A DNA stretch of 64,000 nt from a virus: positions 1 to 64,000 of IMG/VR virus record IMGVR_UViG_3300023174_004605, one strand, 5' to 3'. The notes under the pieces are model-generated. The model was not told where the DNA came from. It saw only the letters and a list, made by a program, of their open reading frames with translations, and did not search any database. Of this stretch, positions 2,520-39,314 are shown one piece after another. Within the stretch, counting starts at the first letter, position 1. Each line of letters opens with the position of its first letter. The position numbers were made by a program, and so were the translations under genes.

Positions 2520-2635
2520 TGGACTTGTTGTTCGGAATCTTACTCAGCGTAGTTTTAATCTTTGGATTAATATTTCTCAGTGTAGGCCTTGGAAAGTTGG
2601 CCGGATGGTTTTCAGGACGCAATGACGCAAGATAA
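2519..2635 (+). CDS. Small single-TM protein (38 aa, MDLLFGILLSVVLIFGLIFLSVGLGKLAGWFSGRNDAR)
   Basis: Read by hand; TAATG coupling to clamp stop; fills the gap. Confidence 0.55.
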   Translation: MDLLFGILLSVVLIFGLIFLSVGLGKLAGWFSGRNDAR

Positions 2636-4172
2636 CTTAACTGCCAAGCAGAATGACTATGCAGTGTTTCTGCCGGCCATATCGGGCTTCTACGCCACAT
2701 TCATAGGCAAGCAACGTGATATTGTGGCGGGTCCTTATGTGGACCCTGCCAGGATGCCTGCGGGTATCCAGGACATGGAACAAATGAACTGGCTCAACAG
2801 CCAGAAGGCGTTGTTTCCATATCGGTGGAGTCTGTATTCGGGCGGACATGCCAACTTGGATCTCAACAAGCAAGACTGGTCGGAGGACATGGTGCGTAAC
2901 CGTGAGCCCGGTACTGTAATGCTAGGCGACTCGGGTGGATTCCAGATTGCCAAGGGCCTATGGGAAGGCGACTGGAAAGCCAACTCAGGTTGTCCCAAAG
3001 CACAGAAGAAGCGTGAAGCAGTGCTCAAGTGGCTGGATAGTATCGCTGACTATGGCATGATCTTGGATATCCCCACCTGGGTCATACATGACAAGAAGGC
3101 ATCGGCTGCATGCCAGATCACTACATTGGAAGAAGCAGTTGACGCTACCAAGTTCAACAACGACTATTTCATGCGGCATCGCAAAGGTGTTAAAAATGGC
3201 GGCGCCCGGTTCTTGAATGTGTTGCAGGGTGCCAATCATGCCGACGCCGATCGTTGGTATGAAACAATGAAGCACTATTGCGATCCTGCGGTATACCCAG
3301 ACACACACTTTGATGGTTGGAGTATGGGTGGCCAGAACATGTGTGATGTACATTTGGTCCTGAAACGCTTGGTAGCCTTGCGTCACGATGGTCTCTTACG
3401 TGAAGGCGTACATGATTGGATGCACTTCTTGGGCACAAGCAAACTGGAGTGGGCTGTATTGCTCACTGATATCCAACGTGCTGTAAGAAAATATGTGAAT
3501 CCTAGTTTCACTATCAGTTTTGATTGCGCCAGCCCGTTCCTGGCTACAGCCAATGGACAGGTGTATCATCACATTGACCTACCACACAATGACAAGTGGT
3601 GCTATCGCATGAGTCCCATCGTGGATGACAAAAAGTATGCCACTGACACACGTCAGTTTGGACCTGCGGTATTGGCTGACGGACTTATAAATCACTTTGA
3701 TGAAAGTCCAATTAGTCAACAGTTACAGATGAAAGACATCTGCATATACAAGCCCGGTGACCTAAACAAGATCGGCAAAGAAGGCAAAACGTCATGGGAC
3801 AGTTTCAGTTATGCCTTGCTCATGGGTCACAATGTGTGGATGCATATCGAAGCGGTACAACGTGCCAATCGCGAGTATGACTCGGGTTCATGGCCGGCCA
3901 TGATGTGGAATCAAAATGGTGATCATGCCCGATTCCGAGACATCGTTGATGCTATATTCGCTACTGACAGTCGTGAAGAATCAGAAGCCATAATCGAAAA
4001 TTATGATCGCTATTGGATGGACATCGTGGGCACACGTGGATTCAAAGGCAAGAAGGCCAAAAATGCACACAGCCAATTTAATACGCTTTTTGATGTTGAA
4101 AACGCTTCTGATGATTCAGACAATGAGTCAGAATTTGATCAATCAAAATTAGATGCACTAGAATCTCAATGA
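2622..4172 (+). CDS. dpdA: TGT/DpdA-family guanine transglycosylase, probably acting on DNA or nucleotides (7-deazaguanine insertion)
   Basis: LGDSGGFQ, LDIP, NVLQG, MHFLG, SFDCASP TGT-fold motifs; no C-terminal Zn-binding CxCxxC; folE/queD/queE in window. Confidence 0.8.
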   Translation: MTQDNLTAKQNDYAVFLPAISGFYATFIGKQRDIVAGPYVDPARMPAGIQDMEQMNWLNSQKALFPYRWSLYSGGHANLDLNKQDWSEDMVRNREPGTVMLGDSGGFQIAKGLWEGDWKANSGCPKAQKKREAVLKWLDSIADYGMILDIPTWVIHDKKASAACQITTLEEAVDATKFNNDYFMRHRKGVKNGGARFLNVLQGANHADADRWYETMKHYCDPAVYPDTHFDGWSMGGQNMCDVHLVLKRLVALRHDGLLREGVHDWMHFLGTSKLEWAVLLTDIQRAVRKYVNPSFTISFDCASPFLATANGQVYHHIDLPHNDKWCYRMSPIVDDKKYATDTRQFGPAVLADGLINHFDESPISQQLQMKDICIYKPGDLNKIGKEGKTSWDSFSYALLMGHNVWMHIEAVQRANREYDSGSWPAMMWNQNGDHARFRDIVDAIFATDSREESEAIIENYDRYWMDIVGTRGFKGKKAKNAHSQFNTLFDVENASDDSDNESEFDQSKLDALESQ

Positions 4173-5227
4173 GGAAAAACTTTTGTGCAGCACCATGGGC
4201 TGGACTTAGTTTGGATCCAGACGGTCAGGCCAAGATGTGCTGTATCAGTCAAAATCGTGTGTCATTGACTGAACTTGATAAAGCGAGCACTAATGCTGAT
4301 TTTATAGAAATTCGGCAAGCGTTTATACAAGATCAACAACATCCTAACTGTCAAACATGCTGGACTCGTGAGCAAGGTACATTAGAGTGGGAAAGTCGCA
4401 GAAGCATTTATCAATATGATTATTTTCATGACCTAACTGATAATTCTAAATTTAAACTTGAACATCTGGATCTAAGATGGAGCAATACCTGCAATCTAAA
4501 CTGTGTGTATTGTAATTCTACCTTCAGTAGCAAATGGGCAGAACTAGAAGATCTTAAAACCAAGTTCAGGATTTCTCCCACGATCACTGATGCTGATCTT
4601 GGGAATCTACGTGTGTTGCAATTGGCCGGCGGCGAACCCATGCTGATCAAAGAAAATTTAGACATTCTTACTCGGGTCAACAAAGTCAATCCCGACGTTG
4701 CAATTGAAATAACTACCAATCTTACACAAATACAAAACAACCCCATTTACAAAATGCTAAAAAATTTTGCCAATGTTAGATTTGTGGTCAGTTTTGAATC
4801 CACTGGTGCCAAGTTTGAATATATCCGTAACGGTGCCAAATGGAACTTGTTTCGGAAAAATTTAGATTTGTTGGCTATGGATTTTTTAGACATCCAATTC
4901 AACATGGTGTACTTTCCTTTGAGCAGTCTGGATATCGCCAGTGCCATGCATACCGCGTTGGATTACACTTTACCTGAAAATATTTTCGTGGTGACGCAAT
5001 CGGGTGGACATGGGTTTGACATGCTGAGTCAACATGTTGTACAATACATAAAGCAACTAAACTTAAATCAAGCCAAATCATTACCTAACATTTTACGACA
5101 AAGGTTTTTGGATCATGTCAACAAGATTGATTCTCAACTAAGGGATACTTTTTTGCCACAGTATGACAGATTTGATCAATTAACCAATCAGAATCACAAA
5201 CAGATATTTGCGGAATTATATCAATGA
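4169..5227 (+). CDS. Radical SAM protein with N-terminal SPASM/twitch domain
   Basis: CNLNCVYC motif, AGGEP, N-terminal FCAAPW...CC...CxxC. Confidence 0.85.
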   Translation: MRKNFCAAPWAGLSLDPDGQAKMCCISQNRVSLTELDKASTNADFIEIRQAFIQDQQHPNCQTCWTREQGTLEWESRRSIYQYDYFHDLTDNSKFKLEHLDLRWSNTCNLNCVYCNSTFSSKWAELEDLKTKFRISPTITDADLGNLRVLQLAGGEPMLIKENLDILTRVNKVNPDVAIEITTNLTQIQNNPIYKMLKNFANVRFVVSFESTGAKFEYIRNGAKWNLFRKNLDLLAMDFLDIQFNMVYFPLSSLDIASAMHTALDYTLPENIFVVTQSGGHGFDMLSQHVVQYIKQLNLNQAKSLPNILRQRFLDHVNKIDSQLRDTFLPQYDRFDQLTNQNHKQIFAELYQ

Positions 5228-5960: not shown

Positions 5961-6277
5961 TACGTTGGTTATGGAGCCGTGTCATGAAGTGGGGTTGGGA
6001 CTACGGTCGCGACATTGATGAACCAATACGAGGCCGTAGTCGTAAAGGCAGGTATGATGTAGTGTCCGTTGGCATTGATGACATAGATTCGACGATTGAA
6101 CTGCCAGATCCTATCACATTCCGTGTGCAGGCCATCACTGGTGGCACCTTGGTAGAAACACGCTGGTATAATCCCAAAAATGATGAGCCCATTAGAAAAC
6201 TGCACATAGTCAATGACAATGACAACTTGGCAGAAGCCATTGGCCGAATTGTAACCATGGAGTTGTTAAAGAAATGA
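5957..6277 (+). CDS. Hypothetical protein
   Basis: ATGA overlap at 5957. Confidence 0.6.
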   Translation: MIRWLWSRVMKWGWDYGRDIDEPIRGRSRKGRYDVVSVGIDDIDSTIELPDPITFRVQAITGGTLVETRWYNPKNDEPIRKLHIVNDNDNLAEAIGRIVTMELLKK

Positions 6278-6723
6278 TACAAGAACAAAGAGAAACCGTA
6301 GAAAGAATCAAAGAGCACGCAGAACGCAAGATCTGGGTGACCTTACGCCGCGAAGGCATACACTGCTATCCGGCAGCGGCCACAGATCCTAGATTAAATA
6401 CAGCAGGAGAGTATGATGTATCGTTTCTTGCTAGTCCTCATAGGCATATTTTTCATTTCCGGGTGTGGATCGATGTGTGGCACAATGACCGGGACATCGA
6501 GTTCATCCAGTTCAAACGATGGCTCGAGTCGTTGTATTCGGGTAACGATTCCGTTTTAGAACTAGATTTCAAATCCTGTGAAATGATCGCAGATGACCTG
6601 TACACTCAGATAGCCGATCGCTATCCCGAGCGTGCTGTATGGATTGAGGTGGCCGAAGATGGCGAGAACGGTTGCCTTATCAAGTATGAACTTTCTCGCC
6701 CTAATTTATTAATCAAATATTAA
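6274..6723 (+). CDS. dpdL: QueD-like T-fold protein, probable DpdL-type CDG decarboxylase
   Basis: FLASPHRHIF = LxxxHRHxF in place of the QueD CxxxHGH motif; SCEMIA and VAEDGENG T-fold motifs. Confidence 0.7.
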   Translation: MIQEQRETVERIKEHAERKIWVTLRREGIHCYPAAATDPRLNTAGEYDVSFLASPHRHIFHFRVWIDVWHNDRDIEFIQFKRWLESLYSGNDSVLELDFKSCEMIADDLYTQIADRYPERAVWIEVAEDGENGCLIKYELSRPNLLIKY

Positions 6724-11091: not shown

Positions 11092-11925
11092 ATGACAACA
11101 TTTACTAGTGAAGATCTTAAAAACGCAATGAAAAATATAATCCCAGCAGTAGAAGTAGCGGATCACGCACAGTTGGTTCGTGAAGCACCGTATCACCCTG
11201 GCTATGAAGATGCTGTAGTAGACCCAGAATACGGAAGGCCCCTGAGCCAGGTTATCCGTGACAGCATGCGAGCATCGGGCAAACGTTTCTGGGCTGGAGA
11301 CAATATCAGTGAGTTTATTGAAACAGAACAAGAACGTGAGCAGTTGATCACGGAAGCCACTCAAGCATTTGAAAAAGTTTTAGATACATTATTAATTGAT
11401 AGAGAAACAGATCCTAATAGTAAAGGCACAGCACGCCGTCTTGCAAAAATGTATTTTAACGAGATCATGGCAGGTAGATATGAACCAAGACCCGACGCCA
11501 CTGCTTTTCCCAACGACTCGGAGGACAGATATGAAGGCATGCTTGTTGTTCGTAGCGAATTGCGTAGTATGTGCAGTCACCATCATCAGCCTGTATCTGG
11601 CGTTGCTTACATTGGTATCATTGCTGCCCAAAAACTTATTGGTTTATCTAAGTACACTAGGATTGCTCAGTGGTGTGCTCGTCGCGGTACTTTGCAAGAA
11701 GAACTAGCCAACGACATCGCCAGAGAGATTGCTAGAGCCACGGATTCAGAAAACATCGGGGTGTATATACAGGCCACACATGGTTGCTGTGAGAATCGAG
11801 GCATCATGGCACACAGTAGTTTGACCCAGACCACGGTGCTTAAAGGTGCGTTCCGTACTGATCCAGCAACTAAAAAAGAGTTCATGGACAATATCAAACT
11901 GCAACAAGAGTTTGCACCACGATGA
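11092..11925 (+). CDS. folE: GTP cyclohydrolase I
   Basis: SMCSHHHQP, GLSKYTR, LQEEL, HGCCENRG. Confidence 0.95.
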   Translation: MTTFTSEDLKNAMKNIIPAVEVADHAQLVREAPYHPGYEDAVVDPEYGRPLSQVIRDSMRASGKRFWAGDNISEFIETEQEREQLITEATQAFEKVLDTLLIDRETDPNSKGTARRLAKMYFNEIMAGRYEPRPDATAFPNDSEDRYEGMLVVRSELRSMCSHHHQPVSGVAYIGIIAAQKLIGLSKYTRIAQWCARRGTLQEELANDIAREIARATDSENIGVYIQATHGCCENRGIMAHSSLTQTTVLKGAFRTDPATKKEFMDNIKLQQEFAPR

Positions 11926-15414: not shown

Positions 15415-15624
15415 ATGAGTCAACAAAGAAAATTCCAACTCCAATTAAAAAATGATCAGATCATTGAACTAGAATTCACCAGCATTGAGGTAGCTAACAA
15501 TCAACTTTGGCAGATGTTTGCTACTACACAAGCTCTTGATACTGTGCAACAACTCATTGACATGTCAGATACCACTCAAACCAAATCTGCTAGAAAAATA
15601 CCGCCAAAGAAAAATACCAAATGA
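15415..15624 (+). CDS. Hypothetical protein
   Basis: GAGGA SD before ATG 15415. Confidence 0.55.
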   Translation: MSQQRKFQLQLKNDQIIELEFTSIEVANNQLWQMFATTQALDTVQQLIDMSDTTQTKSARKIPPKKNTK

Positions 15625-15806
15625 TTTTTCTAACTGCTCTCATGTGTGCGTTGTTAACCTATCAAGTTACCATGCCGGCGATTGACAATGCCAAATATAC
15701 TTTCACGGTACATAAAGATCAGATAGTTAGAATGAACACTCAAAACGGCACATTTGAACGTTGTAACGAACATCTCAAATGTGAGCCAGTCAAGCAAGAT
15801 AAGTAA
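15621..15806 (+). CDS. Small secreted or membrane protein
   Basis: Hydrophobic N-terminus, two C-terminal Cys. Confidence 0.55.
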   Translation: MIFLTALMCALLTYQVTMPAIDNAKYTFTVHKDQIVRMNTQNGTFERCNEHLKCEPVKQDK

Positions 15807-15812
15807 CAACTC

Positions 15813-15880
15813 AGCGGTCTTCTTCGGCGTCATCCCGCTTTACAAACTCTGCCGCCTATGCTAAACTTAACATAGGAGAT
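15813..15880 (+). promoter_or_regulatory. Candidate preQ1-class-I-like riboswitch in the queD 5' UTR
   Basis: P1 AGCGG/CCGCT, loop ending CATC, A-rich tail TTACAAACT, P2 CGGCG/TGCCG, then a CCTATG/CATAGG hairpin overlapping the AGGAG SD; ATAAGTA late-type promoter at 15799. Confidence 0.55.
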
Positions 15881-15885
15881 TTAAC

Positions 15886-16410
15886 ATGGCAACTTACGTA
15901 TCAACAAAAACATACGGCACCGATCGCGGACTCAGCTGTTGCTTTCGACAATGGCGCAGCACTCACAGCCATTGCAGTTTATTGCATGGTTATTCGATTG
16001 GTATCACGTTAGTGTTTGAAAGCGAAACACTAGATGACCGTAACTGGGTCATGGACTTTGGTGGACTCAAGGCCTTCAAAGAGTGGAGCGAATATATGTT
16101 CGATCACACTCTAGTAGTGGCCGAGGATGATCCTCATCGAGGCATGTTTGAACAAATGGCTCGCATGGGCTTACAAGATCAGGGCGGGGTATGTGACTTG
16201 AGAATTGTAGAAGCAGTGGGTTGTGAGAAGTTTAGCGAACTGGCCTACAAAGAAATGGAACACATCCTACGCACATTCCAGGCCGGTCGTGAATACGGCT
16301 TACCAAACGGAAAGACGTTTTCGGCACGCTATCCTGTGGGTCAAGGTGTGCGCCTACGCAGTGCCGAAGTGTTTGAACACACCGGTAATTCGGCCATCTA
16401 TGAAGGATAA
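15886..16410 (+). CDS. queD: 6-carboxy-5,6,7,8-tetrahydropterin synthase
   Basis: HCSLLHGY, WVMDFGGLK, FDH, VFEHTGNSA. Confidence 0.88.
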   Translation: MATYVSTKTYGTDRGLSCCFRQWRSTHSHCSLLHGYSIGITLVFESETLDDRNWVMDFGGLKAFKEWSEYMFDHTLVVAEDDPHRGMFEQMARMGLQDQGGVCDLRIVEAVGCEKFSELAYKEMEHILRTFQAGREYGLPNGKTFSARYPVGQGVRLRSAEVFEHTGNSAIYEG

Positions 16411-16451: not shown

Positions 16452-17297
16452 ATGGCAAACGAATATCGAATAGCAGTTCTTTTACCTACACGTGGCAGGA
16501 CAACTGCACTAGATCGCAGTGTACAAAGTCTGGTTGAGCAGGCACATGATATTGACAGCGTACAAATCCTGCTGGGCTTTGACAATGATGATGTAGTTGG
16601 GATCAAACACTTCACAGAGCATTTACAACCTTGGTTGGATAATCATGGCGTGAACTACACTGCCATAACATTTGAACCAATTGGTTATATCCGGCTCAAT
16701 GAATATGTCAACACTTTGGCCCTCAACAGCTCAGCAGATTGGTTGGTATTTTGGAACGACGATGCGGTCATGCATACCCAAGGCTGGGATAACATAATTG
16801 CTGGACATACCGGCGAATTTAAAATATTGGCATTCCGCACACACAACGACCATCCCTACAGCATATTTCCTATAGTGCCACGTGAATGGTTGGATCTACT
16901 AGGACATCTGAGTCCACACCAAATATCAGATGCCTGGATCAGCCAACAGGCCTATTGTATGAACATACTTGAACGCATCAACGTGCATGTGGAACACGAT
17001 CGTGCCGATCTTACAGGCAATAATTTAGATGCAACCTACAAGAACCGACCCATGTTGGAAGGCAATCCTAGCAATCCAGGAGATTTCCATCATATTTCCT
17101 GGACTGCCAAACGCATGCGAGAATGTGATGTAATCAGTGACTATATGAAAAGTCGCGGCATAGATACCAGCTTTTGGGAAAATGTTAAATTACAAAAACA
17201 AGATCCCTGGGAACAGCTAAGAGCCAACGATACTAACAAACAAATGCGCCAGTTCCAGATCAGTCACGCCGATCCAAAACCACTGAACCAATTATGA
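16452..17297 (+). CDS. GT-A (GT2-like) glycosyltransferase
   Basis: VLLPTRGR, FDNDD, FWNDD. Confidence 0.75.
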   Translation: MANEYRIAVLLPTRGRTTALDRSVQSLVEQAHDIDSVQILLGFDNDDVVGIKHFTEHLQPWLDNHGVNYTAITFEPIGYIRLNEYVNTLALNSSADWLVFWNDDAVMHTQGWDNIIAGHTGEFKILAFRTHNDHPYSIFPIVPREWLDLLGHLSPHQISDAWISQQAYCMNILERINVHVEHDRADLTGNNLDATYKNRPMLEGNPSNPGDFHHISWTAKRMRECDVISDYMKSRGIDTSFWENVKLQKQDPWEQLRANDTNKQMRQFQISHADPKPLNQL

Positions 17298-24147: not shown

Positions 24148-24953
24148 AGGTCCTGATCACAGGTGCTGGAGGATTCCTGGGCACTTATTTTGCCCAGCAT
24201 CTTGATCATGATGTTGATGCACCGAATCGGCAGGACTTGAATCTTACCAACAGTGCAGAGGTTGCCAAACAACTGAGATCAGGTCATTACGATGTCATAC
24301 TGCATTGTGCCAGTGCCGGGCGCAACACAGCTAAATCCATGGATGCAGATATTGCCACCAACAACCTTGTTGGTTTTTCCAACCTAGTAGCCAATCGGCA
24401 TGAATTTGGCATGTTGATCAATTTCGCAACAGGTGCCGAATTCGACATTGATACTGATATCAACTGTGTGAGCGAAACAGAGATTTGGTCACGTAACCCA
24501 ATACACAGTTATGGCCGTAGCAAAAATATCATAGCACGCCAGGCACAGATGTTGACTGACTTTTATAATTTAAGAATTTTTGGTTGTTTTGATTCCAGCG
24601 AGTCAAACCATCGTCCATTGAAGACATTTATAAACAAAGCCAAATTAGGACAAACATTTTCGATTCCTGCAGACAAAGAATTTGATATGATCAGTGTGCC
24701 AGACATTTTAACTGTGACACAGGCAGTTATGGCCAAACAAATCAGTGACAAAGACATAAATTTAGTTTATAATACAAAATATAAACTCAGCGATTTCATT
24801 ATCATGTTTGCAGAATTGCACAATCTGGATACAAAACTTGTGAGTGTTGGCGCAGTCGATCAAAACTGCTACACCGGCGACGGTTCCAAATTGTCTGCAC
24901 TTGGTCTTGAGTTATTGGGACTCGAAAAATCTTTGAAAAATTACCAAATATGA
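24144..24953 (+). CDS. NAD-dependent sugar epimerase/reductase
   Basis: TGAGGFLG, YGRSK, LRIFGCF. Confidence 0.8.
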   Translation: MKVLITGAGGFLGTYFAQHLDHDVDAPNRQDLNLTNSAEVAKQLRSGHYDVILHCASAGRNTAKSMDADIATNNLVGFSNLVANRHEFGMLINFATGAEFDIDTDINCVSETEIWSRNPIHSYGRSKNIIARQAQMLTDFYNLRIFGCFDSSESNHRPLKTFINKAKLGQTFSIPADKEFDMISVPDILTVTQAVMAKQISDKDINLVYNTKYKLSDFIIMFAELHNLDTKLVSVGAVDQNCYTGDGSKLSALGLELLGLEKSLKNYQI

Positions 24954-25486
24954 AGAAAATTTATTATTCGTGGCAGGATACCGAACGTCAAACACACGAA
25001 TTATTGCGTCAAATAAATCTGGACAGATGGCGCCCTGACTATGTAGTAGGACTTACTCGTGGCGGCTTGGTTCCTGCTAACCTGATCAGCCAATACCTTG
25101 ATTGCAGGATGGAAACACTAAAGGTCAGTCTCAGAGATGGTAGTCAACAAGAAACCAACTGCTGGATGGCCGAAGATGCGTTTGGTTATGGCGGTGCAGA
25201 CGGTTACCCAGCCGACTCACTGAAAAAAAATATCCTAATCGTAGATGACATTAACGATTCGGGTGCTACCTTAAATTGGATCAGGAAAGATTGGATGAGC
25301 AGTTGTTTTGCTACCAGTCCAGTGTGGGACCACATCTGGGGCCACAATGTGCGTGTGGCAGTGTTGGTTGATAACGAATCAAGCAAGTCGGAAATTCCTG
25401 TCAGTTACAGTGCAGTTGATCTAAATAAAGCCGAAGAAGATTGTTGGATTGTTTTTCCATGGGAATCATGGTGGCAATCTAAATAA
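24950..25486 (+). CDS. Type I phosphoribosyltransferase (purine PRT-like)
   Basis: GLTRGGLVPA, ILIVDDINDSGAT PRPP loop, WIVFPWE. Confidence 0.88.
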   Translation: MKKIYYSWQDTERQTHELLRQINLDRWRPDYVVGLTRGGLVPANLISQYLDCRMETLKVSLRDGSQQETNCWMAEDAFGYGGADGYPADSLKKNILIVDDINDSGATLNWIRKDWMSSCFATSPVWDHIWGHNVRVAVLVDNESSKSEIPVSYSAVDLNKAEEDCWIVFPWESWWQSK

Positions 25487-25490
25487 GCGT

Positions 25491-25688
25491 ATGAAAATAA
25501 AATATCGTAAACCCACTCTACAAGAACAAATGACCGAGGCTATAGAAACGGCCAAACAACCCATAGACTATTTTGAACTCACGCAAACAGAATTTCAATC
25601 TATCTTTCACAGTCTAGACAAGTCCAAATCCGGTAGCACAATAACATATTCTTACAAAGGTATCTCTATAAAGGTGTTAGATGAGTAA
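25491..25688 (+). CDS. Hypothetical protein
   Basis: ATG 5 nt after CTAAATA. Confidence 0.55.
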   Translation: MKIKYRKPTLQEQMTEAIETAKQPIDYFELTQTEFQSIFHSLDKSKSGSTITYSYKGISIKVLDE

Positions 25689-26559
25689 AATAAAAGTTTC
25701 AGAAGTATTTTATAGTTTACAAGGCGAAGGTCGCTTTGTAGGTGTGCCAAGTGTGTTTTTACGCACATATGGTTGTAATTTTACCTGTGCAGGATTTGGT
25801 TGTGCTCCAGGAGAAAAATCAAAGGGCGCCGATGAAGTGGCTGAAGTAGTACATCTGTATAACAAATTTGAAGAGTTGCCTTTGGTGGAAACCGGCTGTG
25901 ACAGTTATGCGTCGTGGCATCCTGCATTCAAACACTTGAGTCCTACGCAGACCACAGAAGAGCTAGTCGAACGCATGTTAGCACTCACACCCAACAATCA
26001 ATGGATGCAGAACAATGGCAATGATGTACACTTGGTAATCACTGGTGGCGAACCATTGCTGGGTTGGCAACGTGCCTATGCAGAACTGCTGAGTCACCCA
26101 AGAATGGCAGACTTGAAAAACATCACGTTCGAGACAAATGGTACTCAAGAGTTGCACAAAGATTTCCAACATTTTTTGTTGGACTGGACCTTGAATCCCA
26201 GACTGGGCAAAAAAGGCCCGTCAGCTTTGACATTCAGTGTCAGTGCCAAACTCAGTGCGTCGGGCGAAAAGTGGGAAGAAGCCATATGTCCCGACGTCGT
26301 TATGAGCTATGCCAATATTGGACACACTTACTTGAAGTTTGTGGTAGAAACCGACGAGCATATTGCGGATGCCATACGTGCCACGGATGAGTATCGTCGT
26401 GCAGGATTTAAAGGAGTGATTTACTTGATGCCACAGGGCGGAGTTGTTGAGCCGTATGATCGCAACAAGTTACGAATCGCAGACATCTGTGTCAAGCATG
26501 GCTGGAACTACAGTCCACGCTTGCATGTGGATCTCTGGGGTAATGGCTGGGGCAAATGA
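25681..26559 (+). CDS. queE: 7-carboxy-7-deazaguanine synthase (radical SAM)
   Basis: EVFYSLQGEG, FLRTYGCNFTC...CDS, ITGGEP, ETNGT, SPRLHV. Confidence 0.92.
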   Translation: MSKIKVSEVFYSLQGEGRFVGVPSVFLRTYGCNFTCAGFGCAPGEKSKGADEVAEVVHLYNKFEELPLVETGCDSYASWHPAFKHLSPTQTTEELVERMLALTPNNQWMQNNGNDVHLVITGGEPLLGWQRAYAELLSHPRMADLKNITFETNGTQELHKDFQHFLLDWTLNPRLGKKGPSALTFSVSAKLSASGEKWEEAICPDVVMSYANIGHTYLKFVVETDEHIADAIRATDEYRRAGFKGVIYLMPQGGVVEPYDRNKLRIADICVKHGWNYSPRLHVDLWGNGWGK

Positions 26560-26793: not shown

Positions 26794-27549
26794 ATGAAAG
26801 AACTCGCAAACGACATATCCGCATGGATCAAAAACTACGCTTCCGAAAATAACATTGAATGGTTGGTAGTAGGTATTAGTGGGGGAATAGATTCTAGTGT
26901 GGTCAGCACCTTGTGTGCCAGAACCGGTATGCCAGTCACGGTTGTGTCCATGCCCATACGACAAAGACCCGAACTGCATGATCTCAGCATGAGACACGGT
27001 GTTTGGCTCACCAAAAAATTCAGCAATGTCAAACACGAAACAGTGGATCTCACACCTGTGTTTGATCAGTTCGAAATCACACTAGGACAGTATAACAACT
27101 TGTTGGGCATGGCCAACAGCCGTGCTCGACTGCGTATGGCATGCTTGTATCAGATAGCACAGCACAACCACGGCATTGTGGTGGGCACAGGCAACCGAGT
27201 CGAAGACTTTGGTGTGGGCTTTTATACCAAATACGGCGACGGTGGAGTGGATATCAGTCCCATTGGTGACTTGATGAAAACCGAAGTATGGGATCTGGGA
27301 CGCGAACTGGGTATTATACAGGATATCATTGATGCAGCGCCCACAGATGGACTCTGGACCGACGGTCGCACTGATCAAGATCAACTGGGCGGTCTTACTT
27401 ATACACAGTTAGAGCAGGCCATGCTTTGGGACGAACAGGGAGTTGACCCTGCTTATGACGCAGATTACAACCTGTTGTTGCAATATCGCAGAATCCGTGC
27501 CCGTAGTCTACACAAGATGTTGCCCATACCTGTGTTTAAAAAATCCTAA
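26794..27549 (+). CDS. nadE: NH3-dependent NAD+ synthetase
   Basis: GISGGIDS, ARLRM, GFYTKYGDGG, PIGDLMK, PTDGL. Confidence 0.92.
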   Translation: MKELANDISAWIKNYASENNIEWLVVGISGGIDSSVVSTLCARTGMPVTVVSMPIRQRPELHDLSMRHGVWLTKKFSNVKHETVDLTPVFDQFEITLGQYNNLLGMANSRARLRMACLYQIAQHNHGIVVGTGNRVEDFGVGFYTKYGDGGVDISPIGDLMKTEVWDLGRELGIIQDIIDAAPTDGLWTDGRTDQDQLGGLTYTQLEQAMLWDEQGVDPAYDADYNLLLQYRRIRARSLHKMLPIPVFKKS

Positions 27550-34035: not shown

Positions 34036-34123
34036 GGGCCGAACGCCGTATTGGTTGCAGGCAGCGGACTCATAATCCGCCTCAGAAATGACACTGTGGG
34101 TTCAAATCCCTCTCGGCCCACCA
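34036..34123 (+). tRNA. tRNA(CAU), probably Ile2 (or elongator Met), with a long variable arm
   Basis: GGGCCGA/TCGGCCC-A-CCA; GCGGA-CTCATAA-TCCGC; about 15-nt variable region; TTCAAAT T-loop. Confidence 0.85.
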
Positions 34124-34140
34124 GTTAAAAGGTAAATATC

Positions 34141-34320
34141 ATGACCGTGGAACAGCAAAAGAAACCGCCTGTAGAACGCTATTACTACTCGGAAGACGAG
34201 TGGGCAAGACTGGGTTGTGGTCCGTTGCCACCCGAAAGAGATCGTGCTCGGCAACTAGAAAATGTTATGGCAAAAGGAAATCCCCGGATTGACGGCAAAA
34301 ACATCAAAGGGTATAATTAA
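34141..34320 (+). CDS. Hypothetical protein (59 aa)
   Basis: Read by hand: MTVEQQKKPPVERYYYSEDEW... Confidence 0.5.
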   Translation: MTVEQQKKPPVERYYYSEDEWARLGCGPLPPERDRARQLENVMAKGNPRIDGKNIKGYN

Positions 34321-34321
34321 C

Positions 34322-34710
34322 ATGTGGTTGATATTTTTTGCATTCATGGCCATAGTGATTTGCTATGGTATTATGTGGTTGAATGAACATCAGGACGAAC
34401 AATGAACATATTGAAAAACATTCCCTGGGCAGCTATAGCTGCCCTGGCAGTATTTGTGGCCATGGGAATAGTGGCTCACTTGTTTGGTAAATGACATGAA
34501 TCAAGACTACAGTTTTGCCATTGGTGTAGTAGTAGTGGCTATTGTGTTTTTATTGCTTTTTTAGTTTCCAATTTTGATCAAAATTGGTGGTAGGACGGGT
34601 CTATGAATAAAATACAAGTTTTCACACTGGGCACAGGACTAGTGATCATGTGGTTGTTTTACAAATTAACTTTGGAAATTTGGTGCTGGATTTATGGTCT
34701 ATTCTATTGA
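34322..34710 (+). other. Four tandem single-TM micro-ORFs (34322-34405, 34402-34494, 34496-34564, 34603-34710)
   Basis: 27, 30, 22 and 35 aa hydrophobic ORFs; the first three are tightly coupled. Confidence 0.55.
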
Positions 34711-34759
34711 CAACGAACTTGAAAAATATCATCTAACCGGTGGCCTATGTCGTTTTTAT

Positions 34760-34767
34760 TATAAATA
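34760..34767 (+). promoter_or_regulatory. T4-type late promoter
   Basis: TATAAATA. Confidence 0.6.
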
Positions 34768-34795
34768 ACACTATTAACCAAAAAAGGAAAAAAAT

Positions 34796-35068
34796 ATGGC
34801 ATTCGACACTTTAACAAGTTTTGCTCGACAGCTAACAACTGCAGAAGAGACTTCAGTCCAAAACTATGTGACGACTCAAATGGGGTCAGGAACAACCAAT
34901 GGTATATCGTATAGTGTTCAACGAACCGGAGTAACCACCGCAGAAGGTCAACCCTTAGCACTCATTCTTCGCGGGTGGGTTGATGAAAGCTCAGCCAACG
35001 CCTATATAGCATTTTTGAATACTTTTAGCCCGGCGCCGGTTTATGCACAGACGGTGCAATCTGTATAA
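34796..35068 (+). CDS. Hypothetical protein
   Basis: AAGGA SD, late promoter. Confidence 0.65.
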   Translation: MAFDTLTSFARQLTTAEETSVQNYVTTQMGSGTTNGISYSVQRTGVTTAEGQPLALILRGWVDESSANAYIAFLNTFSPAPVYAQTVQSV

Positions 35069-35108
35069 TACCTAGACTGGCAAAGTAAAATTGTAGTATA
35101 ATGCCTTG

Positions 35109-35420
35109 AAAGAAAGGTGTTGCGGACCTGGGGGCAGAACCCAGCAGGTCCACCATAAAGAAATTACATAGACATTGATCATAGTTGTAATTGCATTGGT
35201 CTTCCATGTATTGAACAATTAGTTTCTTTATGATGGGCCTGACACAGTTTCGACGTGGCAACAAGTATGGACAGGATCTACACGGCAAAGCAGAAGCCGT
35301 AGGACTGGGGATTCCTGGTCGTAGAAGCAACCTTATTAAATGCAAACGCATCTAATGACGAGGTTTTTGCCTTAGCGGCATGATCTCCGGGGCAACTATG
35401 CCTTGTCACCCAAACTAGTC
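35109..35420 (+). ncRNA. ssrA: Circularly permuted (two-piece) tmRNA; tag (A)ANASNDEVFALAA*; outer ends approximate
   Basis: Acceptor piece first: T-arm CTGGG-GGCAGAA-CCCAG, CAGGTCC-A-CCA ending 35155. Hairpin spacer 35156-35234. Coding piece starts GGGCCTG..TTCGAC at 35235 (G3.U70 pair). Tag ORF 35342-35383 after the TAAAT resume context. TATAAT at 35097. Confidence 0.9.
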
Positions 35421-35421
35421 T

Positions 35422-35448
35422 AAAAAGCCTGAGAAATCAGGCTTTTTT
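35422..35448 (+). terminator. Intrinsic (bidirectional-type) terminator
   Basis: AAAAAGCCTGA-GAAA-TCAGGCTTTTTT. Confidence 0.85.
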
Positions 35449-35525
35449 GTTGGCCACTAAGTAAAAACCACTAAATAAAGAGTTGGGTGATCACCCAGCA
35501 TTCTTTTAAAAGGAAAATCTCAAGC

Positions 35526-36266
35526 ATGAAAAAATTATTAATCGCATTAGCCTTGTCCGCTGGCTTGGTTGCCTCGGCTCAAGCTCAACTCACCGGCAAT
35601 TTAGGTTTGACCAGCGACTACCGTTTCCGCGGTGTTAGCCAAACTCAAAATGCTCCTGCAGTTCAGGGCGGCATCGACTATGCACACAAGAGTGGCTTCT
35701 ATGTTGGTAACTGGAACAGCTCGGTCTCTAGCCAAGTCTACACCTCAGGTGCAGGTTTAGAAAGTGACTTGTATGCTGGTTACAAGAAAGAAATCTTCAA
35801 GGGCATTAGTATTGACGTTGGTAGCTACAATTATTTCTATCCACGTGCAACCACTTCCGCAAAAACTGGTTCAAACTTTGACACCTATGAAGGCTATGTC
35901 GGATTGGGTTACAAAGATATCATCTCTGCCAAGTATAGCAGAACCTTAGGCGAAGGCTACTTTGGTACAGCCAATGCACAAGGCACAACTTACATGCAAG
36001 CAGATGGCAAGTTGCCAGTTCCTGTAGTAAAAAATCTAGCTGTTGTTGCGCACTATGGTCGCACCAATGTGGCCAACAGCACAGCATATGATTACAATGA
36101 CATCAATGCTGGTTTTGTTTACAGCTTACCAAAAGACTTTGACTTGAGCGTGAAGTATTTTACCAATACTGGCACAACAAGAACTTTCGAAACTGCAAAC
36201 ACTGTGAGCGGTCAAAAGCTATACAAAAACGCAGTGGTAGTTGGCTTGACAAAAACTTTCAATTAA
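35526..36266 (+). CDS. TorF-family putative outer-membrane porin
   Basis: Signal peptide AQA, LTSDYRFRGVSQT..PAVQGGIDY, DLYAGY, C-terminal TKTF. Confidence 0.85.
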   Translation: MKKLLIALALSAGLVASAQAQLTGNLGLTSDYRFRGVSQTQNAPAVQGGIDYAHKSGFYVGNWNSSVSSQVYTSGAGLESDLYAGYKKEIFKGISIDVGSYNYFYPRATTSAKTGSNFDTYEGYVGLGYKDIISAKYSRTLGEGYFGTANAQGTTYMQADGKLPVPVVKNLAVVAHYGRTNVANSTAYDYNDINAGFVYSLPKDFDLSVKYFTNTGTTRTFETANTVSGQKLYKNAVVVGLTKTFN

Positions 36267-36281
36267 TTCCGAAAGTGATAC

Positions 36282-36309
36282 AAAAAAAGCTCCTTCGGGG
36301 GCTTTTTTT
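36282..36309 (+). terminator. Intrinsic terminator with UUCG loop
   Basis: AAAAAAAGCTCC-TTCG-GGGGCTTTTTTT. Confidence 0.85.
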
Positions 36310-36324
36310 GTTGACCCAACCCGG

Positions 36325-36353
36325 TTGACAAGATATAAATAGATCTATATAAT
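36325..36353 (+). promoter_or_regulatory. Consensus sigma70 promoter with an embedded TATAAATA late promoter
   Basis: TTGACA-17nt-TATAAT; TATAAATA at 36334-36341. Confidence 0.8.
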
Positions 36354-36359
36354 ACTATT

Positions 36360-36461
36360 ATGTTGAATCGCAAAGTCGACCATCTCGTACCACAGCCCAA
36401 TTTTGCAGGGAGCGTGGTTCTATGGACAATTTGTAAAGAAGGAATTCAGGGTATTGAATAG
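36360..36461 (+). CDS. Leaderless 33-aa ORF (possible leader peptide)
   Basis: ATG at the predicted +1; followed by a terminator. Confidence 0.4.
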   Translation: MLNRKVDHLVPQPNFAGSVVLWTICKEGIQGIE

Positions 36462-36484
36462 TATAAAACATCATACAATATTCA

Positions 36485-36520
36485 AAAACCCTGGAACTAA
36501 ACACTCCGGGGTTTTTTGTT
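36485..36520 (+). terminator. Intrinsic terminator or attenuator ahead of the tRNA cluster
   Basis: AAAACCCTGGA..TCCGGGGTTTTTT. Confidence 0.7.
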
Positions 36521-36538
36521 TAGAAAGAAAGGAAAAAG

Positions 36539-36712
36539 ATGTCAATTGATTATGAAAAATTAAACGATCAAATCGTAAAACAGGCCTGGGACCACACTTC
36601 GGTATTTTTGAACGAGGCACAAAAGCAACGGCTGTTTCAGAACAAGATCGATCGTGCGGCCGCAATGATCCGGGCGCAGGAGCAGTTCCGTATGATGCAA
36701 CAAGAACAGTGA
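36539..36712 (+). CDS. Hypothetical helical protein (57 aa)
   Basis: Read by hand; AAGGA SD. Confidence 0.55.
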   Translation: MSIDYEKLNDQIVKQAWDHTSVFLNEAQKQRLFQNKIDRAAAMIRAQEQFRMMQQEQ

Positions 36713-36718
36713 AACAAT

Positions 36719-36794
36719 CGCGGGGTGGAAAAGTTGGCATTTCGTCAGTCTCATAAGCTGAAGGTCGTCGGTTCGAATCCGACCCCCGCAACCA
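36719..36794 (+). tRNA. Initiator-type tRNA-fMet(CAU)
   Basis: CGCGGGG start, C1:A72 mismatch, CTCATAA loop, encoded CCA; anticodon stem lacks the 3 G-C pairs. Confidence 0.9.
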
Positions 36795-36795
36795 A

Positions 36796-36957
36796 TTATG
36801 ATCTGGGACGGCAAGCGGCAAAGGCTGTCACAGCAGGATCTCGAAAGTTGAGGCCGTTGCTGAGTTGTTGACATACAGCCGCAGAGGCCACTGGTTGTTC
36901 CAGTTTACGGATAAGATCTCCGTTGAGGTAAACGAATAAGGTCAAAATGTATTCCAT
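36796..36957 (-). CDS. Small protein (53 aa) antisense within the tRNA cluster
   Basis: AGGAG SD; MEYILTLFVYLNGDLIRKLEQPVASAAVCQQLSNG...AACRPRS. Confidence 0.55.
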   Translation of the reverse strand: MEYILTLFVYLNGDLIRKLEQPVASAAVCQQLSNGLNFRDPAVTAFAACRPRS

Positions 36958-37040
36958 GTGTATAACTCCTAGTAATATATATCGCAGTTTATATGCGATT
37001 TTTCAAGGGATCCAATACATTTTTGTTATGAGCTTATTAC

Positions 37041-37118
37041 AGTGAGGTGGCAGAGTGGCCCAATGCAAGGGACTGCAAATCCCTAAAGCCGTGAGTTCGA
37101 ATCTCACCCTCACTTCCA
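37041..37118 (+). tRNA. tRNA-Cys(GCA)
   Basis: AGTGAGG/CCTCACT-U73-CCA; AGGGA-CTGCAAA-TCCCT. Confidence 0.9.
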
Positions 37119-37124
37119 AGTTTG

Positions 37125-37198
37125 GTCGGTCTGGTATAATGGCATTACAGCGGTCTCCAAAACCGTTAATTGAGGTTCGATTCCTTAGACCGGCGCCA
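37125..37198 (+). tRNA. tRNA-Trp(CCA)
   Basis: GTCGGTC/GACCGGC-G-CCA; CTCCAAA loop. Confidence 0.9.
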
Positions 37199-37223
37199 TG
37201 TTTAGAAAAGAAAGGAGGCACGT

Positions 37224-37814
37224 ATGCCAGCAGTATTTTTAGTCAGCGACACACACTTTGGTCACGCAGGTGTATGTCGCTTTACCCGTAACGATGGTGT
37301 GACCAAACTCAGACCATGGACTGATCCAGATGAAATGGACGAGGCCATGGTAGCAGCGTGGAATGATCGTGTGCGTCCAAATGACAAGGTTTACCACTTG
37401 GGCGATGTTGTTATCAACCGCAAGGCCTTGGGCATCATGCGCAGGCTCAACGGTGAAAAGGTCTTGATCCGCGGCAACCACGATATTTTTAAAGACGAGG
37501 ATTATACACCTTATTTCCGTAGCCTACGTGCCTACCATGTGATGAATGGCATGATCTTGAGTCACATGCCTATTCACAGTGAAAGCCTGGGTCGCTTTGG
37601 TGTCAACATCCATGGACATTTGCACGCCAATCGTGTGATGTTGCCCGGATTCAATGGCAAGATCACCGACATCGTTGATACTAGGTATCATTGTGTGTGC
37701 GTGGAGCAGACCGACTTTGCGCCAATCCTGTTTGAAGATGTGGTCAAAAGAATCGAAGCAGAAGGTGGTGTAATAGGTTTCAAGAATGGCAATGGAACCA
37801 CGCAAGCGACCTAG
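37224..37814 (+). CDS. Calcineurin-like metallophosphoesterase
   Basis: SDTHFGH, HLGD, RGNHD, IHGHLH. Confidence 0.9.
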   Translation: MPAVFLVSDTHFGHAGVCRFTRNDGVTKLRPWTDPDEMDEAMVAAWNDRVRPNDKVYHLGDVVINRKALGIMRRLNGEKVLIRGNHDIFKDEDYTPYFRSLRAYHVMNGMILSHMPIHSESLGRFGVNIHGHLHANRVMLPGFNGKITDIVDTRYHCVCVEQTDFAPILFEDVVKRIEAEGGVIGFKNGNGTTQAT

Positions 37815-37821
37815 TAGTTCG

Positions 37822-37898
37822 ACCCCGGTGGCGCAACAGGCAGACGCACTCTCCTCAGAAGGGAGCTGTTGAAGGTTCGAATCCTTCCCGGGGGACCA
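37822..37898 (+). tRNA. tRNA-Leu(CAG) with a short variable loop
   Basis: Leu-type D arm GGCAGACGC, CTCAGAA loop, 5-nt variable loop, A73-CCA, A1:G72 mismatch. Confidence 0.85.
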
Positions 37899-37927
37899 TT
37901 GACATCATTGATCTTTTGTAGTATAAT
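37899..37927 (+). promoter_or_regulatory. sigma70 promoter for rpoZ
   Basis: TTGACA-17nt-TATAAT. Confidence 0.8.
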
Positions 37928-37948
37928 TGTTGTTCACAAGGAGAAGCC

Positions 37949-38170
37949 ATGAGTGTAAGAATTGAAAGTCGTAGCAGTGAAATTGATACCGAACGCTGTG
38001 TAGAGCATGCTGGTGGCCGTTATGATCTTGTGATCGCCGCCGCACAACGCTTAAGAGAAATGAAACGCCGAGCCAGAGAAACCAACTCTTGGGTCACGCC
38101 CATTGATGCACTCAAAGAAGTACAGAGTGGAACTTTTAATATGACTGATTATTTGGTAAAGGTAAAATAA
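37949..38170 (+). CDS. rpoZ: RNA polymerase omega subunit homolog
   Basis: CVEHAGGRYDLVIAAAQRLREM ... ALKEVQSG match omega CR1/CR3. Confidence 0.8.
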   Translation: MSVRIESRSSEIDTERCVEHAGGRYDLVIAAAQRLREMKRRARETNSWVTPIDALKEVQSGTFNMTDYLVKVK

Positions 38171-38172
38171 AC

Positions 38173-38331
38173 ATGGCAAAACGTCAAAGTGCAGGTGAAC
38201 TAAGTCGAACCATTGCTGGACAATGGTCAAAAAGCGAAAAGCGTTCAGCGGCCAGTAGAAGCATCACAGAAGCCAACAAGAAAGCACATCAAACTCTCAA
38301 AAAAATTGCTCAACAAATGAGAATGAAGTAA
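38173..38331 (+). CDS. Small basic protein (52 aa)
   Basis: Read by hand: MAKRQSAGELSRTIAGQWSKSEKRSAASRS... Confidence 0.55.
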   Translation: MAKRQSAGELSRTIAGQWSKSEKRSAASRSITEANKKAHQTLKKIAQQMRMK

Positions 38332-38334
38332 CAT

Positions 38335-38410
38335 GCACCCATCGTCTAGAGGCCCAGGACTCGGCCCTTTCACGGCTGCAACAGGGGTTCGAATCCCCTT
38401 GGGTGTACCA
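38335..38410 (+). tRNA. tRNA-Glu(TTC)
   Basis: GCACCCA/TGGGTGT-A-CCA, CTTTCAC loop. Confidence 0.9.
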
Positions 38411-38415
38411 ACATT

Positions 38416-39009
38416 TTGAATATGTCAACATCAGTTTTAGTCACCGGAGGTAATCAAGGGCTTGGCATAGACTTGGCTCAATACTTTGATGCTCATAGTG
38501 TCAGCAGAAGCACAGGGCACGACATCTTGGCAGGTCGTGAAGCCATCGCCGAACTCAGTGCCAATTATGATGTGTTCATTAACAATGCATATGATGGGTT
38601 GTTTGGGCAAAGCAGAACAGCATATGGCCAGGCACAGTTGTTGACCGAAGTGGCCATGCTGTGGCGTGATCAGGGCAAAGCCGGGCACATCATAAACATT
38701 GGTGGAGTAGGCAGTGAAGACACTGGTGTACCGTATCCAGGCTGGGAAAGTTACAATGCCAACAAGGCCGCACTCAAACATGTGAGTCTACAGTGGACGC
38801 AGGCCTTCCGTGCCAATCAGGTCTTATTCCGTACTAGCTTGATCACTGTGGACAGATTGGACACACCAGCAGGTCGTGCCAGACCTACCTGGACTGGCAA
38901 TGGAGTTGCGTCTCAAGATATCATTGGCATGATCAAACTCTGCCTAAACACTCAACCAAATACCTGTATAGGCGAAATAACTAGCTGGGTTAATCTTGAT
39001 TATAAGTAG
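38416..39009 (+). CDS. SDR oxidoreductase
   Basis: TGGNQGLG, FINNA, YNANK. Confidence 0.8.
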   Translation: MNMSTSVLVTGGNQGLGIDLAQYFDAHSVSRSTGHDILAGREAIAELSANYDVFINNAYDGLFGQSRTAYGQAQLLTEVAMLWRDQGKAGHIINIGGVGSEDTGVPYPGWESYNANKAALKHVSLQWTQAFRANQVLFRTSLITVDRLDTPAGRARPTWTGNGVASQDIIGMIKLCLNTQPNTCIGEITSWVNLDYK

Positions 39010-39033
39010 ACATACAAAATCAGGATCACAATC

Positions 39034-39249
39034 ATGTCAAACAAACTCATCCGCAAAAAACCTGGCTACACCCGAAGTGGCGAAGTCAAGATCATCAGTC
39101 TCGGCATCAAGCAGTTGATGGATCTCAAAGAAAAAACACAAACCAATAAAAAACGGGCCAAGATACAGCGTCGCATAGACTTGCTGAAACGTAGATCTGG
39201 ATATGTGGAACCTGTGGTCGAAGTCACAGAAGAAACACAGCCGGTTTAG
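39034..39249 (+). CDS. Small basic protein; stop codon lies inside tRNA-Thr
   Basis: TATAAGTA element upstream; 71 aa. Confidence 0.6.
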   Translation: MSNKLIRKKPGYTRSGEVKIISLGIKQLMDLKEKTQTNKKRAKIQRRIDLLKRRSGYVEPVVEVTEETQPV

Positions 39250-39314
39250 CTCAGCGGTAGAGCAGTGGTTTTGTAAACCAAAGGTCGGGAGTTCAATCCT
39301 CTCAACCGGCACCA
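39240..39314 (+). tRNA. tRNA-Thr(TGT)
   Basis: GCCGGTT/AACCGGC-A-CCA, TTTGTAA loop. Confidence 0.92.

Follow-up and report, generated by a model that had tools for sequence, protein, structure and literature searches.

We analyzed the first 64 kb (64,000 nucleotides, hereafter the window) of the 95.7-kb IMG/VR virus record IMGVR_UViG_3300023174_004605, which derives from an uncultured jumbo phage and is estimated to be 28% complete, and found that the leader of its queD-like gene is almost certainly a conserved cis-regulatory RNA built around an H-type pseudoknot. On balance, we favor the view that this leader is a metabolite-binding riboswitch that turns translation on; ligand binding, the identity of the ligand, and the direction of the switch are the parts of this view that we infer. 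The leader occupies a gap of 79 nt between a 61-codon open reading frame (ORF), whose stop codon lies at 15804–15806, and the 174-codon queD ORF that starts at 15886. Its letters (15813–15888) read exactly as they had been quoted in an initial annotation of this DNA, which proposed an H-type pseudoknot and interpreted the leader as a variant of the class I preQ1 (preQ1-I) riboswitch.

Copies of the leader were gathered by protein homology alone, from 80 IMG/VR loci encoding a QueD 73–88% identical to the protein of the window. Counting the window, the motif was present upstream of queD in 74 of 81 homology-collected sources, and these yielded a first alignment of 52 distinct copies with gaps in the first loop (L1) only. 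The pseudoknot was scored on this alignment with stem P1 at columns 3–7/26–30 and stem P2 at columns 14–20/44–50 (we denote the 5′ and 3′ strands of each stem a and b, and the loops L1 to L3). Paired bases occupied 88.7% of the cells, as compared with 35–57% when the partner strands were slid. The covariation score was 0.50, against at most 0.15 for slid partners, and was reached by none of 500 shuffles. In a second alignment, for which the covariance model R1 aligned 100 copies (92 distinct), 87.5% of the cells were paired, as opposed to 35–55% in the slid controls, and the covariation score was 0.47 against at most 0.11. P1 pairing was complete (100%) in the 52 copies and reached 98.9% in the 92 distinct copies, with exchanges among CG, AU, and UA at the third pair and between AU and UA at the first. 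In the core of P2, all five pairs varied, each with three to five pair types in the first alignment and three to six across both. The P2 variants include GGCG/CGCC (in the window), GGUG/CACC, UGGUA/UACCA, AGCAA/UUGCU, GACAU/AUGUC, GGCAU/AUGCC, and GACUU/AAGUC. Thus, both helices covary among the queD leaders of related phages. The H-type pseudoknot is real, and P1 (AGCGG/CCGCT) is the helix that had been proposed from the single sequence.

The register of P2 was decided by the same comparison. The initial annotation had preferred CGGCG/TGCCG as the main register and had listed GGCG/CGCC among alternative pairings. The second of these registers is shifted by 3 nt in the 3′ direction, and GGCG/CGCC pairs in 90% of the cells while CGGCG/UGCCG pairs in only 42%; the former is therefore the supported P2. 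G-U pairs, which would be A-C mismatches on the other strand, are frequent in P2, and the structure is thus one of the sense-strand RNA. The first alignment has 18 invariant columns, which are divided between the three loops (11 columns) and P1 (the others). L1 keeps C-U, L2 (UCAUC) keeps U.A.C, and L3, which is 13 nt long, keeps A.A.A.UCU.C; judged by sequence, such a pattern is the one expected of an aptamer. A single-sequence fold of the leader was not significant (minimum free energy z-score of −0.79), and such a fold is uninformative here because pseudoknots are not modeled. The hairpin that had been predicted to mask the Shine-Dalgarno (SD) sequence is present in the window. It is invariant in the leader subtype to which the window belongs, in which P2b is followed by CTATG (the CTATG subtype), and hence covariation neither supports nor refutes it.

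A sequence pattern was then used to scan IMG/VR, and more than 120 stretches matched it, which is a lower bound. In the 80 loci that were examined, a matching P1a was always present (80/80), and a homologue of the Pfam family PTPS, to which QueD belongs, always followed (80/80), 25–110 nt after P2b apart from one locus at 395 nt. These PTPS homologues were 31–87% identical to the protein of the window. Since the motif is kept in front of proteins with as little as 31% identity, the RNA is more conserved than the protein encoded downstream of it. The covariance model R1 reported exactly one copy in the record of the window and in each of four relatives, including a 343-kb genome that is 99% complete, and no copy in a relative, 92% complete, in which queD is not preceded by the motif. 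Among the genome contigs of 185,579 species genomes, there were 13 pattern matches, of which five were real, all on small contigs of metagenome-assembled genomes (MAGs). The matches that were not real are attributed to chance, and two matches (L118 and L119) lie inside coding sequence. The motif was absent from GenBank phages by blastn, and R1 identified no copy in five cultured jumbo phages that carry related pathway genes. Apart from a few small MAG contigs, the motif thus occurs only in contigs of uncultured phages, and our literature searches returned no description of it.

Three loci depart from the usual arrangement. In L045 (2429–3525), the motif is followed by a second, diverged PTPS paralogue and then by queD, and in L022 (2208–3525) it is followed by a DUF1698-type methyltransferase gene and then by queD. 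In L059 (2880–3003), the downstream untranslated region (UTR) and start context are the same as those of the L020 subtype, and a TTGACT-17-TACTAT promoter stands in the place of the aptamer. From its sequence, the L059 leader looks like a natural aptamer-less version.

Besides pairing with P2a, the 3′ strand of P2 and its flanks can pair with the ribosome binding site (RBS) and the start codon. In the window, GCCG (15851–15854) is complementary to UGGC of AUGGCA, and CCUAUG is complementary to CAUAGG of the SD. In other subtypes, GUCAUC pairs with GAUGGC where the protein starts with Met-Ala, UUGCUAUC pairs with GAUGGCAA, and GUCAUUGUU pairs with AACAAUGGC. Where the protein starts with Met-Val, UACCAUAU pairs with AUAUGGUR, a compensatory change that extends into codon 2. 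Across 130 distinct leaders, the duplex between the P2b region and the leader's own RBS had a mean energy of −8.2 kcal/mol, compared with −4.9 kcal/mol for shuffled windows (own duplex stronger in 122/130) and with −6.6 kcal/mol for the P2b regions of other leaders (stronger in 101/130). The duplex spans the AUG in 112 of the 130. In a partition-function model, P2b paired with the region from the SD to AUG+8 at a probability above 0.5 in 43 of 60 leaders, and at 0.97 in the window. When the aptamer nucleotides were blocked in the model, the mean unpaired fraction of the SD increased from 0.49 to 0.70; for the window, it went from 0.39 to 0.71. P2b lies 18–30 nt upstream of the SD, and the SD is never within P2. 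These data support a separate expression platform, as the initial annotation had suggested.

The P2b nucleotides used by P2 are also used for masking the RBS (the CC of CGCC in the window, which belongs to both P2 and the CCUAUG/CAUAGG hairpin; GUCAU or UACCA elsewhere), and so the two structures exclude each other. Stabilization of the knot should therefore turn translation on. The proposed switch would comprise an aptamer of ~44 nt, namely P1, L1, P2a, L2, P1b, the 13-nt L3, and P2b, followed by the expression platform. With the knot unformed, the 3′ strand of P2 and its flanks would pair with the SD and start-codon region, and initiation would be blocked. The most likely stabilizer of the knot would be a small ligand resembling guanine (a purine, 7-deazapurine, or pterin), which would be read by the invariant C before P1b together with the invariant loop bases. 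P2b would then be kept in the aptamer, and queD would be translated, as probably would the glycosyltransferase gene behind it. Such an arrangement has the general layout of a riboswitch: the putative aptamer is structured and conserved, it lies in the 5′ UTR of genes that are metabolically coherent, and an expression platform goes with it.

Wired in the opposite direction, the leader would be an OFF switch operating by feedback as preQ1-I does, in which a product or intermediate (7-deazaguanine, 7-carboxy-7-deazaguanine (CDG), or preQ0) stabilizes the knot, and the hairpin stacks on P2, masks the SD, and throttles queD. Every preQ1 riboswitch that has been characterized turns que genes off (PMC11625349), and end-product feedback is the simplest metabolic logic. 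However, the structures that this switch would have to combine exclude each other for the reason given above, the SD is never in P2, unlike in preQ1-I, and the modeled accessibility of the RBS rises with the aptamer formed. We therefore regard an OFF switch as distinctly unlikely. The initial annotation had viewed the leader as a means for the phage to throttle synthesis; with P2b competing against the helix that masks the RBS and AUG, the wiring reads in the other direction, with ligand meaning ON.

The knot could also be a translational operator without a small-molecule ligand, which would act either through binding of a protein from the phage or the host or as a kinetic or thermal folding switch. 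Protein-bound regulatory pseudoknots are known in phage leaders, the leader of T4 gene 32 being an example. The element is confined to phages, and the ligand role of the knot is deduced from sequence; both are compatible with an operator. Nevertheless, the element is tied to a single enzyme family across divergent phages (31–88% protein identity) and not to a regulator gene, and its invariant loops and preQ1-I-like geometry with an invariant C fit a pocket for a purine-like ligand. An operator of this type is credible and yet unlikely. The invariant loops, the association with a single enzyme, and the preQ1-I-like geometry are the reasons why we favor a small ligand, and with it the riboswitch.

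The conservation might, alternatively, act at the level of DNA, as a promoter (−35 TTTACA, −10 TAAACT) with a palindromic operator (CCTATG/CATAGG) around its −10 element. A promoter-like site nested within the leader occurs in 46 of the 48 CTATG-type leaders, with TTTACA, TATACA, or TCGACA in L3 as the −35 element and TATAAT, TAAAAT, or TAAACT in the hairpin loop as the −10 element. The −10 variants retain TAnnnT, the −35 variants retain ACA, and the inverted repeat is invariant and so cannot be distinguished from an operator. This explanation, however, accounts for neither the compensatory changes in P1 and P2 nor the G-U pairs. Moreover, the same knot is found in 80 leaders of other subtypes, only one of which has the internal site, and there the promoter lies upstream of the knot instead. 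A sigma-70-like promoter was identified within 90 nt upstream in 45 of these 80 leaders (34 scoring at least 10/12), as opposed to 4 of 128 coding-sequence controls (none scoring at least 10/12) and 3 of the 48 CTATG-type leaders. The −10 element of the upstream promoters mostly ends 6–9 nt before P1a (range 3–55 nt), so that many of the non-CTATG mRNAs would have the knot at their 5′ end or close to it. We conclude that conservation at the DNA level is a highly improbable explanation. Since a nested promoter cannot explain the covariation, it can only coexist with the RNA element, and this at most in the CTATG subtype. No terminator was predicted between 14862 and 15886, and read-through from the upstream genes would thus include the aptamer. 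The leader subtypes could not be told apart by whether an ORF on the same strand ends just upstream.

Several points weigh against the riboswitch interpretation. Related sequences share common ancestry, and the shuffle statistics therefore overstate their independence. The second, pattern-collected set was gathered with a pattern that fixes L2, P1b, and L3, such that only P1a, L1, P2, and the gene context are independent there. No Rfam family matches the leader, so the likeness to preQ1-I is architectural only. A transcript from the nested promoter-like site would, by its position, begin at about the SD and would be without the aptamer. The modeled opening of the AUG is modest (mean 0.22 to 0.31), and in some subtypes (L057, L078, and L083) an AUG-masking helix starts immediately after P2b, where coaxial stacking on P2b would be possible and would suit an OFF switch. 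Finally, for a biosynthetic gene to be switched on by a ligand, this ligand must be something other than the end product, which is speculative.

The ON wiring argues against simple end-product feedback. Three ligands are hypothesized, as they are consistent both with a guanine-like face read by a cytosine and with the ON logic: guanine released by the base exchange of DpdA, the QueD substrate dihydroneopterin triphosphate, and a competing 7-deazaguanine from the host. Carried further, the leader could represent a phage-only riboswitch class that derives from the preQ1-I fold and is turned on by a ligand other than a pathway product. Free guanine, released as DpdA swaps G for 7-deazaguanine, would be the most attractive such ligand, and another would be dihydroneopterin triphosphate. 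QueD would then be raised when guanine competes with the modified base, and the neighboring phosphoribosyltransferase (PRTase) would recycle guanine into GTP for the pathway. We offer this scenario as a conjecture that, in its entirety, is improbable.

The gene behind the leader and the genes around it point to a pathway. The QueD of the window matches Pfam PF01242 (8e-11) and the 'QueD-like' phrog_2389 (3e-32), and is 44–49% identical to QueD proteins of cultured phages. Its identity to the QueD of Achromobacter phage Motura, which heads a queD-queC-dpdA-queE-folE cluster, is 49%, and the two proteins have the motifs LSCxFRQWR, SHCxxxHGY, FDH, and GCE in common. A GT-A-like glycosyltransferase gene follows queD in 53 loci. 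It is found in both main subtypes and comes from two different families (e.g., L040:3542–4243), which hints at a sugar-bearing product.

The Pfam TGT (tRNA-guanine transglycosylase) model gave no match, even at E≤10, in the record of the window, its 99%-complete relative, and four other related phage records. This model can miss distant DpdA subfamilies, as has been cautioned (PMC10516641), and an absence of DpdA was ruled out: the ORF at 2589–4172 contains GDSGGFQ, and its structural model matches only TGT structures. The ORF itself had no Pfam, NCBIfam, or PDB sequence match. Its AlphaFold model, built with 11 homologues, had a predicted local distance difference test (pLDDT) value of 70 and a predicted template modeling (pTM) score of 0.76. 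The top 50 PDB matches were all tRNA-guanine transglycosylases (E ~5e-7), with TM-scores of 0.32–0.38 over the query length and 0.41–0.51 over the target. Pseudomonas phage PA5oct, its relatives, Sinorhizobium phage Phosso, and Vibrio phage 2.275.O encode homologues that are annotated as 'hypothetical'. In PA5oct, the homologue adjoins QueE, and the relatives of this phage likewise have a QueE-like gene; in Vibrio phage 2.275.O, its neighbors are QueF, QueC, FolE, and a YhhQ-type transporter. The ORF is probably a member of an unannotated DpdA subfamily.

A further T-fold ORF (6274–6723) has no Pfam match and carries LASPHRHIF, which fits the LxxxHRHxF signature; homologues occur in 22 other motif loci. 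This signature was assigned to DpdL, a predicted CDG decarboxylase without biochemical validation (PMC10516641). In its N-terminal part, the QueE-like ORF (25681–26559) matches five NCBIfam models of QueE (1e-11 to 7e-10, below their cut-offs) and three PDB QueE structures. Two other candidates were rejected. A 'QueC-like' match at 26866 belongs to an NAD synthase instead, the gene of this family at 26794–27549 after the QueE-like gene, and the radical SAM (S-adenosylmethionine) gene at 4169–5227 (+ strand) encodes a twitch-domain enzyme (NF033640, above cut-off) and not QueE. Seven more radical SAM ORFs (G000, 58–72 kb) lie in the same sugar-modification island as the latter gene. This island, which includes epimerases, a DegT aminotransferase, a thiamine pyrophosphate enzyme, and methyltransferases, surrounds the pathway genes.

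Around 199 motif loci (1.63 Mb, window counted), homologues were found of FolE (51), the QueE-like protein (43), the PRTase (31), the DpdL-like protein (23), and the DpdA-like protein (13). Canonical TGT was found in none of these loci and QueC in a single one; QueC was also absent from the records searched. A DpdA-family gene, folE, queD, queE, and dpdL without queC form the gene set of the DpdL-type pathway of Cellulophaga phage phiST (PMC10516641). The motif thus belongs to a QueC-less, DpdL-type pathway, the predicted product of which is 7-deazaguanine in DNA. The initial annotation had likewise recognized a 7-deazaguanine gene set with neither QueC nor QueF, and its DpdA-like, DpdL-like, FolE, QueD, and QueE-like members are all present. 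The purine PRTase gene immediately precedes the QueE-like gene, and ~30 loci have it near the motif. The enzyme could salvage guanine released by DpdA or ribosylate a 7-deazapurine base. The window also encodes a permuted transfer-messenger RNA (35092–35383, 106 bits) and seven tRNA genes within 34036–39311 (+ strand). The features discussed are listed in the table.

Features of the queD leader and of the associated genes in the window
Feature	Position	Strand	Remarks
P1 5′ strand, AGCGG	15813..15817	+	Partner at 15835–15839; pairs 1 and 3 covary
L1, UCUUCUUC	15818..15825	+	Positions 2–3 (C, U) invariant; columns C9 and T10 of the first alignment
P2 5′ strand, GGCG	15826..15829	+	Partner at 15853–15856; register set by covariation
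L2, UCAUC	15830..15834	+	Last C invariant, at the position of the preQ1-I specificity cytosine (position per PMC11625349)
P1 3′ strand, CCGCU	15835..15839	+	Covariation with the P1 5′ strand
L3, UUACAAACUCUGC, 13 nt	15840..15852	+	Alternating invariant A's, then invariant UCUKC; 13 nt in all copies seen
P2 3′ strand, CGCC	15853..15856	+	Also used in the alternative, RBS-masking structure
Hairpin CCUAUG-loop-CAUAGG	15855..15876	+	Covers AGG of the SD; first CC common to hairpin and P2; arms CCTATG 15855–15860 and CATAGG 15871–15876
Nested sigma-70-like promoter, TTTACA-17-TAAACT	15839..15867	+	Putative; −35 in L3, −10 in the hairpin loop
Shine-Dalgarno AGGAG (15874–15878), spacer, ATG	15874..15888	+	From sequence; ATG at 15886
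queD-like T-fold gene, 174 aa	15886..16410	+	Regulated gene; Pfam PTPS 8e-11; motifs LSCCFRQWR and Cx3HGY
GT-A-like glycosyltransferase gene	16452..17297	+	Next gene; phrog_14945 9e-11; probably co-transcribed with queD
DpdA-like (TGT-fold) gene, 527 aa	2589..4172	+	GDSGGFQ motif; AlphaFold model compared with PDB
DpdL-like T-fold gene, 149 aa	6274..6723	+	LASPHRHIF = LxxxHRHxF signature (PMC10516641)
folE (GTP cyclohydrolase I)	11092..11925	+	
QueE-like radical SAM gene	25681..26559	+	QueE NCBIfam models and PDB QueE structures
Purine phosphoribosyltransferase gene	24950..25486	+	Beside the QueE-like gene; Pfam Pribosyltran 3e-16; PDB purine/xanthine-guanine PRTases

To our knowledge, virus-encoded riboswitches that run the metabolism of the viruses themselves are barely documented. 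The element described here is widespread among contigs of uncultured phages, many of them from jumbo-sized genomes, considering the pattern matches together with ~600 queD relatives in IMG/VR. It is tied to QueC-less, DpdL-type DNA hypermodification and provides a handle on the products of the orphan T-fold and glycosyltransferase genes downstream. If a ligand is bound, the smallest known riboswitch fold would gain a class or a sharply diverged subtype and would be shown rewired from OFF to ON, and the element would constitute a compact aptamer of ~45 nt for a purine- or pterin-like compound.

The known system closest in layout is preQ1-I, types I–III of which are represented by, e.g., B. subtilis queC, T. 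tengcongensis, C. antarcticum, and E. coli (PMC11625349). Like preQ1-I, the leader has an H-type knot with a 5-bp P1 closed by G-C and a short P2, an invariant C directly 5′ of the 3′ strand of P1 whose role in binding is suggested by its place in the sequence, and an A-rich L3 placed along the minor groove of P1. A 7-deazaguanine biosynthesis gene lies downstream, presumably under translational control. The specificity cytosine of preQ1-I is preceded by U in type I and by A in types II and III (PMC11625349); the base before the invariant C of the leader is U in 69, C in 13, and A in 10 of the 92 distinct copies.

In other respects, the leader differs from preQ1-I. Its L1 starts with N-C-U and not with U or UU: the first base is A in 34, U in 32, and C in 26 of the 92 copies, and the next two are invariantly C and U. 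Its 13-nt L3 contains an extra invariant UCUKC before P2b. Its P2 is longer, with four to seven canonical pairs, and excludes the SD, whereas the 3′ strand of P2 in preQ1-I holds SD bases. The platform is separate and predicted to be ON, in contrast to the OFF switches of preQ1-I, and the leader was seen only in uncultured phages. No family of Rfam 15 matched the leader at gathering or at permissive thresholds. The preQ1-I model RF00522 matched nothing in the window, including at E≤10 on 15600–16100, nothing at E≤10 on the L040 leader, and nothing at its gathering score on 29 related loci. The only matches were to the Rfam models of the mgtC leader, dfrA-dnaX, and preQ1-II; they scored 13–20 bits and were dismissed as chance. 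Thus, the preQ1-I layout proposed in the initial annotation holds (5-bp P1, invariant C, A-rich L3, and short P2), while membership in RF00522 does not. Because it is missed by this model and departs from preQ1-I in three defining sequence features, we file the leader as a variant of the fold and not as a preQ1-I member.

A compact preQ1-I-like element was observed in Vibrio phage 2.275.O, a cultured jumbo phage, in the gap before QueC (L247:13549–13592; MG592671.1 ~334845–334888). It is a single sequence with a weak R1 score (15.7 bits), and Rfam does not report it. It shares P1 (AGCGG/CCGCU) and the specificity C with the leader, and its L3 starts with AUAUAAAUUC, as in L026-type copies. Unlike in the leader, this A-rich L3 leads directly into AGGAG, the SD, which forms the 3′ strand of P2, as in the classical OFF layout; the element has a loop of 9 nt ending in AACC, lacks the UCUGC insertion, and stands before QueC in a pathway of the QueC/QueF type. 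Going by its sequence, this element is a possible link between preQ1-I and the queD-leader motif.

For the proposed direction of switching, the parallel lies elsewhere. The adenine riboswitch of Vibrio vulnificus add is a translational ON switch, in which part of the ligand-free aptamer pairs with the RBS or start region until the ligand captures that strand and initiation becomes possible. The queD leader would follow the same ON logic, and it differs from add in its fold, which in add is a three-way junction, and in the class of gene controlled.

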